Shown here piece after piece: positions 4,485 through 20,113 of a DNA stretch of 64,000 nucleotides (the first letter of the stretch is position 1; each line of letters begins with the position of its first letter). The DNA comes from Candidatus Bathyarchaeota archaeon (GTDB lineage: Archaea; Thermoproteota; Bathyarchaeia; Bathyarchaeales; Bathycorpusculaceae): NCBI GenBank assembly GCA_963806535.1, contig CAWDYC010000010.1, positions 69,085 to 133,084 of the forward strand, written 5' to 3'. The position numbers and the translations under genes were made by a program. The notes beneath the pieces are model-generated. The model searched no databases. It had not been told where the DNA came from and saw nothing but the letters and a program-made list of their open reading frames with translations.

Positions 4485-6550
4485 CTATACAATAGCAGTT
4501 AGACCCAGTTGTTCAAGCATGGTTGCGATATGGTTTGTTGCTGGAAGGCACATTTGGTCTCGGCAAACATATGCAGTTGCTTTGCCCTCGATTTGCTGAT
4601 AGTCGAAAGCAGATTTCTCTGGACTCTTAAGTGACACAGTGGTTGTTGGCAGGTAATGCTTCTTTAATGCATCAAGCATTTCCAGCGGTGTCTTTGTGCG
4701 TTTTTTCACCAACTAAGGTAACGCTGTAGGATGGACCAATCAGAAAATCATATGCTAAAAGGAAGAACGTGTATGCTTCAGGCGCTCCTTCTACTTCTTG
4801 CCCAAATGTTTTCGTCATTTGGGTTGCCATTGTTTCGAAGGTAAGTTCGTTGGTTAAACGACTTAGCCGCAGCAGATTATACAGTGCGACTGAGTTTCCT
4901 GAGGGAACTGCTCCATCATAGAGCTGCTTGAGTTTTGGTAGTCCCGCCTCACTGGTTTGTGTTTGGTAAAATCCGCCGTTTTTGTCATCCCAAAACTTTG
5001 CCACCATAGTTTTGGTTAGCGCTGTGGCTGCTTGGAGATATTTGTCTTCGAAGGTTGCCTCATAGAGCTCAATTAGCCCCCATGTGAAGAAGGCGTAGTC
5101 GTCTAGGAAGCCGTCAATGGCTGCTTCGCCTTTTGCATATCGATGATACAGCACATCATCTTTGAGCATGACGGTTTAAGATGAAGTCTGCTGTTTTCTA
5201 TTGCGGCTTCAATGTACTTTGGTTCATTAAAAATACTGCCGGCTTTGGCTAAAGCTGCGATCATCAAGCCGTTCCAGTCTGTTAAGAACTTTATCATCTA
5301 TCGCTGGAGGCACCCGTTTCTTTCTTACTTCAAAAAGAATATGTTGAATTTTGCCCAGCCTCATGATAAGTTCATCCAGCGTTAAGCCTTTGTATGATGC
5401 AAGTTCATCGAGAGGTTCGGCGAGGTAAAGAATATTTTTGCCTCTGCTATTAGGAAAGTTGCCGTCAGCCTTTAATCCAAAAAGATGAACAGCCAAGTCT
5501 GCATCTGCCGGTTCTAGCGAATCCAGTGACTTCCTGCAAGGTCCACAGATAATATTTGCCCTCTTCACCCTCTGAATCGGCATCTTGAGCTGAGAAGAAG
5601 CCGCCTTGTGACGAAGATAAATCTCTAATGCAGTAATCCAGAGTTTCCTTTGCGGTTATCTTGAATTTTCCAGCCCGTGTTACCTGGTACGCTTCAACAT
5701 AGGCTATTGTGAGCAGTGCTTGGTCATAGAGCATTTTTTCGAAGTGCGGCACTAGCCATTGCGGATCTGTGCTGTAACGATGAAATCCAAGACCAATTTG
5801 GTCAAAGATTCCGCCTAGCCTCATTTGCCTTAGCGTCTGCTCAGCCATAGCTAATGCCTTCGTTTCTTTAGTTCTCGCGTAGTAGTGCATTAGAAACATC
5901 AGCTTATGAGGAGTTGGAAATTTTGGTGCAGTGCCAAAGCCGCCGTTTTCTTTATCAAAATCCAATGTTAAGCGCTCAAAGGTGTCTCTTAGCACTTCTT
6001 TACCCAAAGATTGTTGAGGAGTTCTCTTTTCCAGATATTCGATTCGGCTCTTGATGTCAGCTCCTACAACTTCAAGCTGAGCGCGTTGTCCTTTCCAAAT
6101 TCTCATAATTTGAGGAACAAGATCCAACATGCCCACTAAGCCTGCTCTGCTGAATTTTGGTATGTAGCTGGCAGCATAAAACGGGTTAAGCTTAGACGTA
6201 AGCAGTATGTTAAGTGGCCAACCGCAGTTTCTGCCCATAGCTTGACAAACAGCCATGTAAGCCGCGTCCAAGTCGGGTCTTTCTTCGCGATCAACCTTAA
6301 TGCAGACAAAGGCTTGGTTTAAGAGGTCTGCAACTTGTTGGTCGTTGAAGCATTCCTCCTCCATGACATGGCACCAGTGGCAGCTGGAGTAGCCGATGCT
6401 GAGGAAAATTGGTTTGTCTTCGGCTTTCGCTTTGTCTAAGGCTTCTTGGCTCCAGGGATACCAGTCTACTGGGTTGTAGGCATGCTGAAGAAGATAAGGA
6501 CTTTTTTCGTTAATCAGTCTATTAGGCTTATTTTCATGATTTGGCTGCAA
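4485..6550 (-). CDS. YyaL/SSP411 thioredoxin-domain protein; about four frameshifts
   Basis: [77 protein letters not shown] across consecutive ORFs. Confidence 0.92.
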
Positions 6551-13976: not shown

Positions 13977-15059
13977 TTGAAGAAGCGTACTGTTGCCTGC
14001 CTACTTTTGATTGTTGCATTGTTAACTGCAACTGAATTTGCCGTCTTCTTTGCTGATGCTTCAACAGGCGATTTTTGGGTGGCAAAAGCACCGATACCTA
14101 GTTCTTCAAGCGGATTAGACAGTGTTGTCTTAAACGGCAAAGTGTATGTAATCGGAACAAATCTCACCACGCAGGGCGCGAGTGCTGACACCAACTCAAA
14201 CTACATGTACGATCCAGCCACAAACACATGGACACAAAAAGCGCCTATGCCGTATTTCGAGGTAGACTTTGGTCTGACAACCTATCAAGGCCAAATCTAC
14301 GTCATAGGTGGATGGTGGTTCGTTCCCACAGCAGCAATTCAAGTGTATAATCCAACCACTGACAGCTGGAGTAATTCGACAGAATTACAATTGCCAGTTG
14401 CTGAAGGCTTTCTCAGTGCCGTCACTGTTAACGGAAAAATCTACGTTATGGGCGGAGCATTCACAGGTTTAGCGGTTCCGATTCCCTATGGCATAAATGA
14501 AGTCTACGACCCAAACAGCAATACATGGAATACACTAGCGAAAATGCCATCTCCAGTTATCGGGTTTGCCATGACAGCAGTCGGCGACAAAATCTATGTA
14601 ATGGGCGGCAGCACAAATGAGACTCAGATATACGATATTCAAACTAACACTTGGTCCTTTGGTTCACCTATACCTGTCACAACTAGTTACAGCGTTGCAG
14701 CAGAAACCACAGGCGTTTTTGCTCCAACAAGAATTTACTATATTGCTGGCCAAACCCAGATCTATGACCCTGAAACTGGCAACTGGTCAATTGGAGCCTC
14801 CGTGCCCACTTCTGGAGTAGAAACTTTAGCAACCGTCAATGACACAATCTATGCCATAGGAGGTTTCAATGGAACTTCAAACGAGCAATATTTCCCAGCT
14901 GGGTACACCGGCCCTGAACCTCAGGTCAGCCCAACCCCCTCTGTCAGCCCAACTCGCTCTGTTCCAGAATTCTCTTTAGCGACGTTTCCATTGCTCGCGT
15001 GTCTAGGCACAACACTTTTGGCTACTGTTTTTCTGAAACGACGCAGAACTAAGCATTAG
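13977..15059 (+). CDS. Secreted kelch-repeat protein with PEF-CTERM-like sorting signal
   Basis: Signal peptide; repeated GKIYVxGG...YDPxxNxW; Pro/Ser/Thr linker, VPEFS, TM helix, KRRR. Confidence 0.9.
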   Translation: MKKRTVACLLLIVALLTATEFAVFFADASTGDFWVAKAPIPSSSSGLDSVVLNGKVYVIGTNLTTQGASADTNSNYMYDPATNTWTQKAPMPYFEVDFGLTTYQGQIYVIGGWWFVPTAAIQVYNPTTDSWSNSTELQLPVAEGFLSAVTVNGKIYVMGGAFTGLAVPIPYGINEVYDPNSNTWNTLAKMPSPVIGFAMTAVGDKIYVMGGSTNETQIYDIQTNTWSFGSPIPVTTSYSVAAETTGVFAPTRIYYIAGQTQIYDPETGNWSIGASVPTSGVETLATVNDTIYAIGGFNGTSNEQYFPAGYTGPEPQVSPTPSVSPTRSVPEFSLATFPLLACLGTTLLATVFLKRRRTKH

Positions 15060-16602: not shown

Positions 16603-16751
16603 CACAGCAATGCCGATCGACTGGGCAGTTGACGCTGCAATTGGAGAAAGAATTCGGAGAGCATATTGCTAAAAAAAGAGGCTGGCATTGGGACTAGCAA
16701 ATTTTGCAATGGATACTTGGGGTGAAACGGAGATGGTTTTGGGCTATGTGC

Positions 16752-17693
16752 TTACTGTTGAGTTGGTTGGGACATATACAGTAAAGTTCCATTTGGTTTA
16801 AAGACCGCGATTAAGACAGCCTCGCCATTAATGTATCCGTTCGGCAATACTGTCTGATGGCTTCCGATGAATTGCACAAATAAGCCATCATAATCTGTAT
16901 TGCCACCATATGTTAAGGTTATAGTTAAGGAATCTATTGTTGGCAAGTTGGATGTCCTGTTTTGAGCAATTTCCAAGGCACGATCATAAAACCATTGAAG
17001 TCCCAAGGCATCTATTTGCGCAAATGAGTCTTTGGCTGCCAGCCCTTGAGGATGAAATTGGTTCACACTGTAAGTTCCAACGTTAACATGGTAAGGATAC
17101 CCTTGACTGGAAAGGAAATAAAAATATGTGTTTGATTTTTGTCCGTAAAAATCAACCTGGACCTGTCCGCCGGGGAATGATGAGTCGAGTTTAATATTTT
17201 CTGCTTCCGTTGGTCCAAATTGGAGTGTTAACAACTTGTAAGTTGGGGTGCTTTCAATGTCTTGTAACATCTGAGATAGAGAGAAATTTAGCATATTGTT
17301 TTTTGAAATGGTAGTGCTTGTTTGAGAGGTTGAGTAAGTTGGCGGATAACCTGCATTCGAAATCAAATTAAATTCAACTGCCGTAAAACTTATCACAAAA
17401 ATCAAGACAGCAACCATGAAAAATTTGAACACTTTCCTTACGTTTCCGTGCGAGAAACGCCAAAGTAGTCCACCGACTAAAATTAGAGTAATAAATACAA
17501 ATTTTAACCACGAATTTAGTAACAAAACTGAACAGAATAATCCGGCAATCACTAGAAAACCCATAACCAAGTTCTGAAAAATTATTCTCGCTCTACTTGC
17601 TTTGCTTTGGTTTGGCAGAGCATGGGTACGCAAAATTGGTTCTTGAGGAAGCCAACCGCGACTGAACTTCAAGAGATGCCTCTTTAGATCCAT
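16752..17693 (-). CDS. Membrane protein: N-terminal RGWLP motif, ~3 TM helices, ~200-aa extracytoplasmic domain
   Basis: MDLKRHLLKFSRGWLPQEP, then three hydrophobic segments and a polar C-domain. Confidence 0.75.
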   Translation of the reverse strand: MDLKRHLLKFSRGWLPQEPILRTHALPNQSKASRARIIFQNLVMGFLVIAGLFCSVLLLNSWLKFVFITLILVGGLLWRFSHGNVRKVFKFFMVAVLIFVISFTAVEFNLISNAGYPPTYSTSQTSTTISKNNMLNFSLSQMLQDIESTPTYKLLTLQFGPTEAENIKLDSSFPGGQVQVDFYGQKSNTYFYFLSSQGYPYHVNVGTYSVNQFHPQGLAAKDSFAQIDALGLQWFYDRALEIAQNRTSNLPTIDSLTITLTYGGNTDYDGLFVQFIGSHQTVLPNGYINGEAVLIAVFKPNGTLLYMSQPTQQ

Positions 17694-17698
17694 ATTTC

Positions 17699-18079
17699 TT
17701 AAAGCCCTCCAAATAATAACCGAACAACAATCACTACTGAAAATAAAATTGCAAGGTTTATAGCTAGAATCGCAAGATTTCGCATTCTTGCTGTGTTGGT
17801 TGGTTTTGGCAAAACGCCTTTATGCACAAGGTAAGCTGCTACAATATTAGCAATGATAATAACTAATAGCGCCGCGAAGCCGAATATCTGTTGTTGAATA
17901 AAAGGCAAATAGATTACTGTCAAGGCTATTATGACCGCTAAAACTCCAAAGACAATTGAAAATCGAAGAGTCTTTGACGATTTAATTGGTGCTTGGAATG
18001 TTCTGGTCTCGTTACTAGGGCGTGGTTTTTGGGGAAGCCAGCCTCTAATTCGTGATTCTAAACTTTTTTTGACATTCAA
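17699..18079 (-). CDS. Membrane protein: N-terminal RGWLP motif, ~3 TM helices
   Basis: MNVKKSLESRIRGWLPQKP; TTG start overlaps the stop of the upstream HTH gene (TTGA). Confidence 0.75.
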   Translation of the reverse strand: MNVKKSLESRIRGWLPQKPRPSNETRTFQAPIKSSKTLRFSIVFGVLAVIIALTVIYLPFIQQQIFGFAALLVIIIANIVAAYLVHKGVLPKPTNTARMRNLAILAINLAILFSVVIVVRLLFGGL

Positions 18080-18558
18080 GCTTTCAGCTCCGGAATTAGT
18101 TTGCTGAAAATTACATGTGCCAGTTTGGCTGGGTGAATTGTCTGGGCTTCTTCGATTTCTATGTTTCTTTCTTTGGCGATATCGAGTAGGTATTGTCGTG
18201 TTTGTTTTAGGAAGGCTGTGTCGGTGACTTCTTCAGGGTTGTCGTGCCAATACCATACCTTAATTCCAAAATTTGTGCTGTAGGTCAATATGGCTTTACG
18301 TTTTAGTGCTGGGTGATATCCCAAAAGTATGCCTTCTTTTAGGTATAGTTTTGTAATTTGGAGGTCGTTTGCTTGTGCGACATCTAAAAGAGTTGTGGAT
18401 AACCTGGCTTCTGCGGAAAGTTTGGTCTGGTTAATGAACTGCCTTGTGGTGTTAAGTTTTTGTGCGATTGCTGCTGCAGATAAGCCCTTGTTTAGTAGTG
18501 ACCAAACGGTCTTTTGCTTTTGGCTTAGAGGTGACGCCAAGGTGCAACTTGCTCTCAT
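18076..18558 (-). CDS. HTH transcriptional regulator (sigma-r4/LuxR-like N-terminal HTH plus alpha/beta C-domain)
   Basis: LSQKQKTVWSLLNKGLSAAAIAQKLNTTRQFIN. Confidence 0.75.
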   Translation of the reverse strand: MRASCTLASPLSQKQKTVWSLLNKGLSAAAIAQKLNTTRQFINQTKLSAEARLSTTLLDVAQANDLQITKLYLKEGILLGYHPALKRKAILTYSTNFGIKVWYWHDNPEEVTDTAFLKQTRQYLLDIAKERNIEIEEAQTIHPAKLAHVIFSKLIPELKA

Positions 18559-18568
18559 GAACCTTCAC

Positions 18569-18592
18569 TTGTAAATAATAATTTATTTACAA
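18569..18592. promoter_or_regulatory. Perfect dyad TTGTAAATAA-N4-TTATTTACAA, probable operator of the HTH gene
   Basis: 10-bp perfect inverted repeat between a minus-strand TATA-like TTAAATAA (18593-18600) and the start codon. Confidence 0.65.
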
Positions 18593-18690
18593 TTATTTAA
18601 GACTGCTGGTTGCATTAAGCGTTCTACCCTTAGAACAAAGTGTTCTATGATTAGAGCTAAAAGCTGTAGGTTATTACTATAGAATTAGCG

Positions 18691-19629
18691 ATGAGTGATA
18701 TGAAAAACTTCAAAGTTAAATTGACTGAACGTTCTTGGGAATCAACTTCATCAATAGAACAGGAAAACACCTCATTGGCTCCGAAACGTCGATTATCTGG
18801 AAGAAAAATCTACTTTATGATATTTGCAATTATTGCAATTTTGATACTTGCGGTCACTCTGCTGATTCCGCAGGGAGCCGCCTCAATACCACTTAACGTC
18901 AACTATACTGTTGGAGAGAAGATGGTTTATGATGCTACGATGACTAGTTCTTTTCAATATGGTAATTCGGCTTTGCCAACAGGGATAACTTCTCAATTGC
19001 CAAATAATACAAGTATAAACATGCAGCAAACAATCGAAGTAACTGGTTTCGACGGTGAATATTATACTTTAAACCACACGATGACTTTGAGCACAAACAG
19101 CAAACCGTTAAGCATCTCATTAACTGAAAAGATGAATAAGACAGGGTACTCAGCATATTTGCTTGACCTTGGAACTACACAACAAGAGATACCAAACAAT
19201 GGCGTTACAAGTGCCTCTTATCTTGCACAACTGTTAAGCAAGCCAGAGGTTAAAGTTGGAGATTCAGTTGAGGTTCCATTTCCCGGTGGTAATTCAAGCA
19301 TTGGGATAACCGGAGACTTAACGATAACTTTCAAAGGCATACAAGACCTTACGGTTCCAGCTGGAACATTCAAGGTTTTTAGAATCGACATAATTAGTAA
19401 TAATCTAAAGATGAACTACAACCTGCCAACAGCCAGTTTAAGCAACTTTACCCCAGCCAATATTAGTATGAGCTTAGATATGAACTCTCAAATGTATATC
19501 GAATATGGATCAATGCGGCAGATAAAGTCAATCATGCAAGAAACGGTTTTGATGCAATCGGTAACTCTGAATTACGGAATGAGTACGAATATGGATATGA
19601 CGCTCGTAGAGCATATTGCGCCTTCTTAG
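18691..19629 (+). CDS. Membrane-anchored exported protein, Ser/Thr/Met-rich
   Basis: Single N-terminal TM helix; LTVPAGTFKVF motif. Confidence 0.7.
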   Translation: MSDMKNFKVKLTERSWESTSSIEQENTSLAPKRRLSGRKIYFMIFAIIAILILAVTLLIPQGAASIPLNVNYTVGEKMVYDATMTSSFQYGNSALPTGITSQLPNNTSINMQQTIEVTGFDGEYYTLNHTMTLSTNSKPLSISLTEKMNKTGYSAYLLDLGTTQQEIPNNGVTSASYLAQLLSKPEVKVGDSVEVPFPGGNSSIGITGDLTITFKGIQDLTVPAGTFKVFRIDIISNNLKMNYNLPTASLSNFTPANISMSLDMNSQMYIEYGSMRQIKSIMQETVLMQSVTLNYGMSTNMDMTLVEHIAPS

Positions 19630-20113
19630 GAGATGGATTACAGTGGCGATAAGACTGTTTGATGCGACTCTTATCGGCTTAATCCTAATTTCCCTAATCT
19701 TTTTAGGGATGGCATTTTTGCTTATTGATATTCCAATATTTAATGCTATTAACCCATTATTATTACAAATGTCTGTTTTGGGCATGTTTTTAGGATTGAT
19801 TTTTGGATTAATTGGTGGATATTGGTATACTAAACAACAACTTAGAATATTGGCAGAAAAGATTGAATTCAAAGGACTTGGATTAAGGAAAATGTACTAT
19901 GCGTTGTTTTTGGGTTTTGCAGTATTTCTCGTTTACTCTTTTTTCGTGTTCTATTATAAGTCAGTTGTTTTAGGTGATAGTTTAATTACCTTTGTTACTT
20001 CCGCTATTTTTACAGCTTATTTAATAAGGTTAATTCTTGTGTCTTCATGGGAAAAGAGAGCAAAAAAAACTATAATGATGGCTCAAAACAAGTTATATAC
20101 AGTTCCCAAATAG
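19616..20113 (+). CDS. Hypothetical 4-TM membrane protein
   Basis: Four hydrophobic segments; overlaps or abuts previous ORF; exact start uncertain. Confidence 0.6.
   Translation: MRLLRRWITVAIRLFDATLIGLILISLIFLGMAFLLIDIPIFNAINPLLLQMSVLGMFLGLIFGLIGGYWYTKQQLRILAEKIEFKGLGLRKMYYALFLGFAVFLVYSFFVFYYKSVVLGDSLITFVTSAIFTAYLIRLILVSSWEKRAKKTIMMAQNKLYTVPK

Follow-up and report, generated by a model that had tools for sequence, protein, structure and literature searches.

A candidate archaeal repressor predicted to be docked by tagged membrane proteins of its own operon

We propose here that a three-gene operon of a Bathyarchaeia genome encodes an autorepressor together with membrane proteins that dock it through a shared N-terminal tag, and that this tethering most likely pulls the repressor off its operator. 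We regard this as the probable reading of a locus whose gene order, whose co-occurrence and co-variation of tag and regulator, and whose operator conservation are all shown in silico. The regulator, which is Tfx/EnfR-like in build and probably a dimer on a 20-bp dyad (GTAAATA-N6-TATTTAC), would bind between the TATA box and the start codon and, to judge from this position, repress its own operon. The downstream genes encode unrelated membrane proteins that all have one 19-residue tag at the N-terminus, on the cytoplasmic side; it consists of a basic helix and then RGW[L/F/I/V]P[K/Q]EP, and its Trp-Leu-Pro is predicted to insert into a groove of the regulator C-domain lined by the family-invariant residues W102, Y103, H105, P143, A147 and F151. 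In this way every tagged protein would hold the regulator at the membrane, and tethering would most likely take the repressor off the operator (as an anti-repressor, in the way that an anti-sigma factor acts on a sigma factor or PtsG on Mlc), so that the state of the membrane proteins would thereby feed back on the operon.

The operon lies on the minus strand of the window, by which we mean the whole stretch of 64,000 nucleotides analysed, taken from a genome of 2.95 Mb. Its features are as follows:

18594-18600, minus strand: TATA-like box TTAAATA, directly upstream of the dyad, read from the sequence
18569-18592, no strand assigned: operator dyad (putative) TTGTAAATAA-ATTA-TTATTTACAA, a perfect 10+10 palindrome between the TATA box and the start codon
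18571-18590: dyad core GTAAATA-N6-TATTTAC, exact in the window
18076-18558, minus strand: gene of the HTH regulator, 160 aa, first gene of the operon
17699-18079, minus strand: tagged membrane protein 1, 126 aa, whose TTG start overlaps the regulator TGA (TTGA)
18023-18079, minus strand: tag of protein 1, MNVKKSLESRIRGWLPQKP, residues 1-19, cytoplasmic
16752-17693, minus strand: tagged membrane protein 2, 313 aa, after a 5-bp gap from protein 1
17637-17693, minus strand: tag of protein 2, MDLKRHLLKFSRGWLPQEP
16671-16677, minus strand: run of seven T about 75 nt past the last stop codon, a possible archaeal oligo-T terminator

The original prediction had described a perfect dyad between a TATA-like box and an HTH gene, the tight coupling of that gene (TTGA overlap, then a 5-bp gap) to two membrane genes, and a resemblance between the two membrane proteins limited to the N-terminal tag. 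All of this is present, the dyad at 18569-18592, and beyond residue 22 BLAST places the two proteins in separate clusters. The dyad count and the specificity of the tag HMM, both given below, place the locus pattern beyond chance. In line with archaeal termination in general, the run of seven T may serve as the operon's terminator.

The window regulator consists of an HTH of the LuxR/sigma-70-region-4 type (about residues 8-60; helices at 13-23, 28-34 and 39-63, the last of them long) and a C-terminal domain (65-160) of four strands then two helices, in an AF2 model with a pLDDT of 89.4. Its fold matches are confined to residues 1-65. The best structural match of the HTH is EnfR (8hno_A; Z 9.5, rmsd 0.8, 52 aligned residues); RcsB, NarL and sigma region 4 also match this fold, and the DNA-binding domains of DesR, EsrB and NarL do so at Z 6.7-9.1. 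In profile comparison the E values were 7.6e-4 for RcsB, 0.009 for 8hno and 0.033 for Tfx (1nr3). For the window regulator, no family of Pfam or NCBIfam exceeded its cut-off: GerE (PF00196) gave 15.9 bits against a cut-off of 23.5, the LuxR/GerE fold class being shared, TIGR00721 gave 20 bits against 60.25 and over the HTH part only, and PF14601 (TFX_C) gave nothing at E<=1. Sigma70_r4 reached 15.9-16.6 bits on the regulator paralogs, against a cut-off of 24.1, and the ESM Atlas listed Tfx clusters at 0.87-0.88, no more than lead level.

EnfR, the TON_1525 protein of Thermococcus onnurineus (PDB 8HNO), is a dimeric repressor on a pseudo-palindrome (PMC10570040). The window regulator follows the Tfx/EnfR plan in that its two short helices lead into a long "stem" helix, with an alpha+beta domain after it. 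Its C-domain of four strands then two helices is unlike the beta-alpha-alpha-beta-beta arrangement given for EnfR (PMC10570040). No tagged membrane partner is known to have been described for Tfx/EnfR. Searches found no known fold for the C-domain: its best PDB match by VIA-align had a Z of 4.1 (9jwk_A), and Foldseek gave nothing at E<=0.001, with PipX matched weakly. A failed search of this kind does not make the fold new.

The predicted complex places the tag on this C-domain. For the window regulator with the tag of protein 1, the median score was 0.79 (runs of 0.73, 0.80 and 0.79), against 0.02 for the best of three controls; the score mark is one reached by 116 of 157 solved complexes and by 2 of 215 mismatched pairs, a calibration that holds only roughly here since custom alignments were used. 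The runs share at least 58% of their contacts, with a partner pLDDT of at least 46, below 50. Reproduction of a known structure by the predictor is unlikely, because no similar solved complex exists for the C-domain. In the model, tag residues 10-18 lie on the C-domain and leave the HTH free, with W14, L15 and P16 touching regulator residues W102, Y103, W104, H105, T120, P143, A144, A147, H148 and F151. This predicted interface covers invariant columns of the regulator alignment (A2), as well as positions 109 and 120, occupied by Cys in the Cys-type regulators discussed below. The idea, put forward in the original prediction, that the GWxP helix is a docking tag tethering the regulator to interchangeable membrane proteins is supported: each of the three computational checks put forward with it (co-occurrence, co-variation and complex prediction) had a positive outcome, binding itself being a prediction.

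The candidate operator is as conserved across loci as the tag. Of 67 Cys-free loci, 63 carry its core with no more than 2 mismatches, and nearly all of these have it at -25 to -45 relative to the match start. A TTAAATA precedes the dyad by 3-4 nt in almost every related locus. The remaining 589,477 nt of locus DNA hold only 7 such sites. In the 2.95-Mb genome itself, the exact core is present in 2 copies, against 0.056 expected from composition, both of them upstream of the two close regulator paralogs. The dyad is a conserved, clade-specific site between TATA box and start codon, and the regulator presumably binds it. No separate output regulon is visible, because the only perfect operators in the genome are the operons' own.

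These observations bear on the direction in which tethering would act. Because the regulator and up to five partners are co-transcribed, simple sequestration would keep the operon switched on all the time, short of a masked tag or turnover of the partners. A single transcript making regulator and partners, and perfect operators confined to the operons themselves, would be better accommodated if the regulator bound DNA only, or better, when docked on a tagged protein. Regulator and partner would then form a split membrane-bound transcription factor, acting like a two-piece ToxR/CadC-type regulator, or the tag would be a co-repressor, with negative feedback on the level of membrane proteins. The evidence for binding (the pairing described below and the complex prediction) serves this reading equally, as does an interface predicted on the C-domain with the HTH left free. 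However, known systems sequester a regulator more often than they let a non-covalent complex bind DNA at the membrane, and some Cys-type regulators are found without an adjacent partner (L097, L132, L145). We judge it rather unlikely, and prefer removal of the repressor from its operator by the tagged proteins.

What the tagged proteins have in common is the tag and a membrane-bound build. The two window proteins share M-x2-KK-x-L-x2-RIRGW[L]P[Q]xP. Protein 1 has three hydrophobic segments by Kyte-Doolittle, predicted to be TM; protein 2 has two by the same measure and three by eye (about 37-107), followed after about residue 107 by a tail of some 200 aa that is predicted to be extracellular. 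BLAST finds no relative for the tail of protein 1 (from residue 23 on) when it is compared with 119 other partner tails, and the tail of protein 2 has relatives in 5 other loci (L002, L016, L033, L048, L069), each of them tagged. In all, BLAST sorts the partner tails into 37 clusters. Of 119 partners, 118 have one or more hydrophobic segments, the first beginning at a median residue 40, and in 118 of 119 a basic N-terminus precedes the TM segments. A tag HMM of 20 positions, run over all 12,680 open frames of at least 60 aa in the window's own genome, gave 7 matches at E<=0.003, all directly downstream of regulator paralogs (the genome's own tags being part of the HMM), and below E 0.01 it scored nothing except proteins in that position. 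Conservation of the tag at the DNA level (overlapping frames, a hidden operator or RNA structure) was considered and rejected, because second to fifth genes are tagged too and synonymous codons vary freely: R12 uses 6 Arg codons, G13 4 Gly codons and P16 4 Pro codons. The tag is conserved as protein, not as DNA.

It is also conceivable, if improbable, that the C-domain is a chaperone or pilot that holds tagged N-termini before or during insertion, comparable with the chaperone-regulators of type III secretion, and that the HTH couples free regulator to expression. One binder common to so many unrelated client families (37 clusters) would suit such a role, as would the position of the tag at the extreme N-terminus (72 of 122 motif ORFs have the Trp at residue 14) and the translational coupling of regulator and first partner in most loci, by a -4 spacing with ATGA/TTGA overlap. 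The tag is nevertheless cytoplasmic, with some 20 polar residues between it and the first TM segment, which is not typical of an insertion signal; nothing hints that the tagged proteins need help with insertion; and the equal conservation of operator and tag speaks for regulation as the chief function.

Across 154 related loci, the tag adjoins this regulator family. Set A comprises 74 regulators from 80 loci, and set C 36 more Cys-type loci. In set A, 58 of 63 Cys-free regulators have at least one downstream GW[LFIV]P-tagged ORF and none has a Cys tag, and all 11 Cys-type regulators go with a Cys-Pro tag (10 WCP, 1 RCP). An adjacent x-C-[PRQS]-tagged ORF was found in 24 of the 28 set C loci outside the "KPP" subfamily, and no crossed pair of regulator and tag was observed. 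The five Cys-free regulators with no downstream tagged ORF are L004, L008, L023 and L027 (within 2.5 kb) and L064, whose locus ends at its contig end. These counts bear out both the expected co-occurrence of the tag with this HTH family, the tag being found nowhere else in its own genome, and the expected co-variation of GWCP or GWLP with the regulator cysteines. The source genome itself holds both types: contig C5 carries a regulator with 68% identity to that of the window and, downstream of it, four tagged genes, and on contigs C4 and C9 regulators with CxxCx5C precede membrane proteins starting ...DYCPQP and ...DWCRIPP.

A tree of 50 regulators puts the hydrophobic-tag types in one clade (100/100) nested among the Cys types, with each regulator subclade having its own tag flavour. 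The Cys-to-hydrophobic switch occurred once on this tree, so the large pairing counts are not independent events. Switches can be seen within two membrane-protein families, which carry either tag type to match the neighbouring regulator: L005_4938 (GWLP) is 58-60% identical to L071 and L073 (NWCP), and L059 (GWLP) is 38% identical to L072 (NWCP). Inside the Cys-free clade, an Ile at position 111 or 120 of the regulator accompanies Ile or Val at position 15 of the tag (8 of 12 regulators, against 1 of 43); these counts come from related clades and are not independent. Shared descent, given the single main switch, and the fact that binding is a prediction would together leave room for a tag unrelated to the regulator (a sorting, processing or lipid-contact signal in an operon inherited as a block), but a tag found nowhere else in its genome, orthologous membrane proteins that change tag type with their neighbour, subclade-specific tag flavours, the covariation at position 15 (with the reservation just made) and a complex score of 0.79 against 0.02 on invariant residues make this very improbable.

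In the older and more widespread form of the family, the regulator has CxxCx5C and the tag a Cys in place of Leu15. The three regulator cysteines align to residues 109, 112 and 120 of the window regulator. Together with the tag Cys they may form a four-Cys metal site shared across the interface, or a disulfide there, which the clade of the window regulator would have exchanged for a hydrophobic contact. The "KPP" subfamily (8 of the 36 set C loci plus L100, L110 and L111) keeps the three regulator cysteines with a Cys-free "K[VI]I[KR]PP" tag, and this weakens a strict 3+1 Cys model.

How does such a docked repressor compare with known systems? The analogy with ECF sigma/anti-sigma pairs drawn in the original prediction holds as a similarity of working, not as homology. 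SigW-RsiW (5wuq), SigK-RskA (4nqw) and CnrH-CnrY (4cxf) are among the fold matches of the HTH. As in ECF pairs, a small DNA-binding protein with a sigma-region-4-like HTH is encoded directly upstream of a co-transcribed membrane protein, with overlapping or near-abutting genes; the partner is N-in, with a variable outer part and a cytoplasmic N-terminal segment for which binding to the regulator is predicted; and the operon appears to be autoregulated. Unlike an ECF sigma factor, the window regulator is without region 2 (Pfam scans of it and its paralogs found none, giving only sub-threshold HTH matches), and a palindrome downstream of the TATA box makes it probably a repressor. The binding element is a 19-residue tag and not an anti-sigma domain, it is predicted to sit on an extra domain and not on the HTH, and one regulator serves up to five different tagged proteins. 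No partner scanned by Pfam has an anti-sigma domain (ASD, or zf-HC2 with HxxxCxxC), and none shows sequence homology to the anti-sigma side; a weak DUF4179 match (E 0.002, below the cut-off) covers the TM region of the C4 partner. Archaea are without sigma factors, and we know of no archaeal counterpart of the bacterial sigma/anti-sigma pairs.

Removal of a repressor from its operator by direct binding to a membrane protein has a precedent in Escherichia coli, where Mlc is sequestered at the membrane by PtsG, a transporter that Mlc regulates. The proteins are unrelated, and Mlc-PtsG, in contrast to the system here, has no shared tag and no operon coupling. A further likeness is to DUF1673 (PF07895), expanded membrane proteins with a GWCP motif in Methanosarcina, and one Bathyarchaeia partner subfamily starts ...Y[ML]GWCPG (L121, L123, L126, L134). 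Membership of that family was rejected: PF07895 matched none of the window's two partners, six other partners of the same genome and ten Cys-type partners. Its one match elsewhere in the genome, of 16 bits and with three stop codons, is sub-threshold and spurious.

Few archaeal routes are known for passing signals from membrane to transcription, and the system, if true, would be an undescribed way of linking the membrane to gene control. Among the papers listed by literature searches, in whose coverage subscription journals are largely absent, none describes it. It offers a concrete model open to test, in which the peptide, the pocket of invariant residues and the 20-bp operator are all defined, and would give a function to no fewer than 37 families of membrane proteins that lack annotation. 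It also suggests a partner principle for Tfx/EnfR-like regulators, for which the EnfR authors state that no anti-repressor is known (PMC10570040). The possible intermolecular metal site made of three regulator cysteines and one tag Cys would be of structural interest, and the model may explain the "MGWCP" DUF1673 expansion in Methanosarcina, which is genetically tractable. Extended to the whole class, the proposal becomes doubtful: one Tfx-like repressor would read a 19-residue N-terminal tag on dozens of unrelated membrane proteins, with the ancestral tag Cys completing a 3+1 Cys site (Zn or Fe-S) and the tether gated by metal or redox state, and the same logic would account for the DUF1673 expansions and supply an anti-repressor principle for Tfx/EnfR.

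The module is common in Bathyarchaeia. Of 301 sampled genomes 97 hold it, as do 24 of 107 genera, and a single genome can have as many as seven regulator matches. Among the best 120 matches listed for the Cys-type profile, every named one is from Bathyarchaeia or Thermoproteota. In the phylum sample reached through a MAG labelled Methanocella (L048), the same family occurs in 21 of 301 genomes, with Bathyarchaeia-like scores.

The 160-aa HTH protein of the window (the regulator) and the membrane proteins encoded just downstream of it (its partners), which carry an N-terminal tag of ~19 residues, form a module that is real, conserved and apparently undescribed; a literature search found no description of a regulator-tagged membrane protein system. 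Its general kind is already known: a transcription factor under the control of a membrane partner that is co-transcribed with it. In the genome (2.95 Mb, 12 contigs, G+C ~41%; the window is C10:69085-133084), the operon is laid out as follows:

18600-18594, minus strand: TATA-like TTAAATA, read from the sequence
18592-18569, minus strand: perfect dyad TTGTAAATAA-ATTA-TTATTTACAA, read from the sequence
18590-18571, minus strand: dyad core GTAAATA-N6-TATTTAC, 3 bases past TTAAATA and ending ~12 nt ahead of the ATG
18558 (ATG) to 18076, minus strand: regulator, 160-aa ORF by ORF reading
18079-17699, minus strand: partner 1, 126-aa ORF, TTG start overlapping the regulator's TGA (TTGA)
17693-16752, minus strand: partner 2, 313-aa ORF, starting 5 bases past partner 1

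The dyad thus lies between TATA-like box and HTH gene exactly where the original prediction had it, and the coupling of that gene to two membrane genes by a TTGA overlap and a 5-bp gap is confirmed. The partners begin with MNVKKSLESRIRGWLPQKP (126 aa) and MDLKRHLLKFSRGWLPQEP (313 aa) and are both hydrophobic from about residue 37 onward. As had been claimed, they are alike in the tag only, with no relationship past residue 22 in BLAST clustering of partner tails.

The tag keeps company with the regulator. Besides one fragment, the genome encodes four full regulator paralogs. The paralog on contig C5 (68% identical to the window regulator) is followed by four tagged genes, while those on C4 and C9 are distant (35% and 33% identical), have CxxCx5C in the C-domain (Cys-type, the window's clade being Cys-free there), and have membrane-protein partners with N-termini MKKMSIRKRIKNLIDYCPQP and MSIGNKFFDWCRIPPEP, respectively. 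A 20-position tag HMM, searched over the genome's complete set of 12,680 open frames of at least 60 aa, gave seven matches at E<=0.003 (the C4 partner besides the six GWLP proteins), placed the C9 partner at E 1.1, and found nothing else below E 0.4; since the HMM was built including these tags, the informative part is the absence elsewhere. The third tagged gene at C5 (L001 7321-7580, minus strand; C5 ~129320-129579) has no in-frame start, an extra base after the ATG shifting the frame, and upstream of it is a remnant of a regulator's last ~40 residues, 60% identical to residues 120-159. By its sequence, this stretch seems to be a tandem copy of the whole module that has decayed; the tagged gene has an intact counterpart in the first partner of locus L006.

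The predicted co-occurrence holds across the genomes sampled. Genome contigs gave 80 loci with 74 regulator ORFs (set A). Of these regulators 63 are Cys-free (WYWHDNPEEVT...), and 58 of them have a tagged ORF downstream: in 51 it is the first chained ORF that carries GW[L/F/V/I]P (27 L, 15 F, 6 V, 3 I), in 3 an ORF further along the chain, and there are 4 more. No tagged ORF was found downstream in L004, L008, L023 and L027 (2.5 kb examined) or in L064, where the contig end cuts the locus. The first four have regulators 80-87% identical to the window's, the operator kept, and MAG labels of Bathycorpusculum or Nitrososphaerota; the ORF adjoining the L008 regulator has the N-terminus MNTKKSMKDQTTEYY, apparently a decayed tag.

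The proposed co-variation of GWCP or GWLP with regulator cysteines is also borne out. A Cys tag stands beside 0/63 Cys-free regulators, and a Cys-Pro tag beside 11/11 Cys-type regulators of set A (10 WCP, 1 RCP). Among 36 further loci from other families of the class (set C, all Cys-type), 8 belong to the GKLCxxCPKE subfamily, in which the partners have a Cys-free start, ...K[VI]I[KR]PP; 24 of the other 28 have an adjacent x-C-[PRQS]-tagged ORF (10 WCP, 1 WCS, 3 WCR, 2 WCQ, 1 YCP, 7 ACP), and in 4 the partner is absent or doubtful. The GKLCxxCPKExEC regulators (L100, L110, L111, L137-L141, L148-L150), whose branch in the regulator tree is long (2.21), have a single partner with this start and a bacterial PH domain.

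Does this pairing reflect shared descent only? In a maximum-likelihood tree of 50 regulators, those with hydrophobic tags form a single clade (100/100) nested within the Cys types, and the sister of that clade is the WCP-type L067 (93/78), which means one switch on the regulator side. Three observations go beyond a single switch. Tag flavour is specific to each regulator subclade (RWCPQPER, Y[ML]GWCPG, [DE]WC[RQ], [DN]ACPF, KPP). Two membrane-protein families carry either tag type, matching the neighbouring regulator: L005_4938 (RGWLP) is 58-60% identical to L071 and L073 (NWCP) over ~235 residues, and L059 (RGWLPPQP) is 38% identical to L072 (NWCPQPP). Among Cys-free regulators with Ile at 111 or 120, 8/12 go with Ile/Val at tag position 15, as against 1/43 others, a pairing that is suggestive only, its examples coming from a few related clades. 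The tag's invariant Arg, Gly and Pro show free codon usage, so selection acts on the peptide.

What, then, does the tag bind? Complex prediction with the full regulator and residues 1-45 of window partner 1, using our own alignments (A2 and A3), scored 0.73, 0.80 and 0.79 against 0.00, 0.01 and 0.02 for three controls, where, with approximate calibration, the score mark is reached by 116/157 solved complexes and 2/215 mismatched pairs. The runs have at least 58% of contacts in common, with partner pLDDT of 46-49. Direct binding of tag to regulator, as originally predicted, is likely. The confident interface comprises tag residues 10-18 and regulator residues 64, 90, 100-109, 111, 116, 120, 123, 142-145, 147-148 and 151, with tag W14, L15 and P16 predicted to lie against W102, Y103, W104, H105, T120, P143, A144, A147, H148 and F151; W102, Y103, P143, A147 and F151 are invariant in a 77-sequence alignment and H105 nearly so. 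The three cysteines of Cys-type regulators align to positions 109, 112 and 120. Of these, 109 and 120 fall in the predicted interface, and 120 is in contact with tag residue 15, where the Cys of the tag stands; this would fit an ancestral four-Cys site (metal or disulfide) split between regulator and tag, with a hydrophobic contact instead in the window clade. A strict four-Cys site is, however, at odds with the KPP subfamily, where the regulator has its three Cys but the tag has none.

The dyad core is present with at most two mismatches in 63/67 Cys-free loci having enough upstream DNA (28 exact, 29 one, 6 two), in nearly all at -25 to -45 relative to the start of the match and preceded by a TTAAATA-like box; the rest of the Cys-free locus DNA (589,477 nt) has 7 such sites. 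This genome has two exact cores (0.056 expected), each ahead of one of its two Cys-free regulators. Cys-type clades have GTAAGC-N8-GCTTAC, GTCAAC-N8-GTTGAC or GTAAAG-N8-CTTTAC over the same 20-bp span. As its sequence varies with regulator clade, the dyad behaves as expected of the regulator's own putative operator. Archaeal repressors usually bind between TATA box and start codon and, the dyad being so placed, we infer by analogy that the regulator represses its own operon. In L121, L123, L126, L133 and L134 the GTAAAG-N8-CTTTAC spacer holds a TATA-like TTTTATA, which would place a Cys-type regulator right over the TATA box.

The regulator has no match above cut-off in Pfam or NCBIfam, the weak HTH matches being GerE (15.9 bits) and Tfx TIGR00721 (20 bits, cut-off 60.25). 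Its AlphaFold2 model (77 homologs as input, pLDDT 89.4) has helices at 13-23, 28-34, 39-63 (long), 114-130 and 143-159, and four strands within 67-103. Modelled residues 8-60 superpose on EnfR 8hno_A (Z 9.5, rmsd 0.8, 52 residues), and also fit LuxR-type response-regulator DNA-binding domains and many sigma-70 region-4 domains; sequence profile matches are RcsB (E 7.6e-4), EnfR (0.009) and Tfx 1nr3 (0.033). The C-terminal domain modelled by itself (pLDDT 88.9) resembles no solved structure convincingly (best Z 4.1; none at E<=0.001 in Foldseek). The EnfR paper describes a dimeric Tfx-family repressor of 'flag-stem-notehead' architecture and states that it has no known anti-repressor (PMC10570040). 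The N-terminal architecture is common to our regulator and Tfx/EnfR, but ours lacks the TFX_C domain, and the secondary-structure order of its C-domain is unlike that of the EnfR notehead (PMC10570040).

The functional consequence of tag binding is less certain than the binding itself. We prefer, by analogy, that docking would tether the repressor at the membrane and so take it off the operator, much as an anti-sigma factor acts, or PtsG on Mlc. The original comparison with ECF sigma/anti-sigma pairs may hold for manner of function, but the defining features of that family, sigma region 2 in the regulator and an anti-sigma domain in the partners, are absent. In the main rival the regulator is active in DNA binding when docked, which would give feedback on membrane-protein level; co-transcription and the surplus of partners agree with this rather well. 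A chaperone role of the regulator for tagged proteins, or a tag that is a sorting signal unrelated to the regulator, is less likely.

The tag Trp is residue 14 in 72/122 motif ORFs, of which 2 were false positives and were removed. Hydrophobic segments, one to nine in number, are present in 118/119 partners, and the median start of the first is residue 40. A single regulator can be followed by as many as five tagged genes (L016, L028, L038, L069). In BLAST at E<1e-5 the partner tails fall into 37 clusters, recognisable outer domains being NosD/beta-helix (E 8e-46) and bPH_2 (E 2.5e-9, L137 partner). DUF1673 was rejected as the identity of the partners, with no HMM match among those scanned; GWCP, recorded for Methanosarcina DUF1673 (PMC4158269), recurs letter for letter in one Bathyarchaeia partner subfamily.

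Downstream of the tagged gene(s), and in the same direction, stand genes for an ABC-transporter ATPase and permease in L084 (this genome, C9, 87500-93500) and likewise in L031, L032, L044, L055, L063, L077 and L106, with a further tagged gene at the cluster's end in L031 and L055; judging from gene content, the operon payload there may be an exporter. Divergent from the window operator region are a 312-aa N-terminally anchored protein (18691-19629, plus strand) and a 165-aa multi-TM protein (19616-20113, plus strand). A homolog of the former stands beside the C5 module (L001 3406-4326), and homologs of both lie inside the L043 tagged operon (5082-6020, 6007-6504); the pair may be cargo of the module or co-regulated with it. 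A 360-aa Kelch-repeat beta-propeller (13977-15059, plus strand; Kelch_1, E 1.5e-37), secreted or anchored and with a TM segment at its C-terminus, appears unrelated to the module.

The nearest named relatives are all Bathyarchaeia MAGs, and every named protein among 1436 at E<=0.001 in a word-indexed search is from Bathyarchaeia; when the profile was searched exhaustively, 731 clusters (50% identity) reached E<=0.001 and 189 reached E<=1e-10. Matches at E<=1e-5 occur in 97/301 sampled genomes of the class (44/152 high-quality genomes, 24/107 genera), and a phylum-level sample has matches in 21/301. In the exhaustive search, very long proteins (740 to 7703 aa; P0289, P0303, P0317, P0338, P0352, P0384 and others) match the HTH segment only (profile positions ~6-55), in 7 to 16 repeated stretches, and may be arrays of HTH-like repeats.
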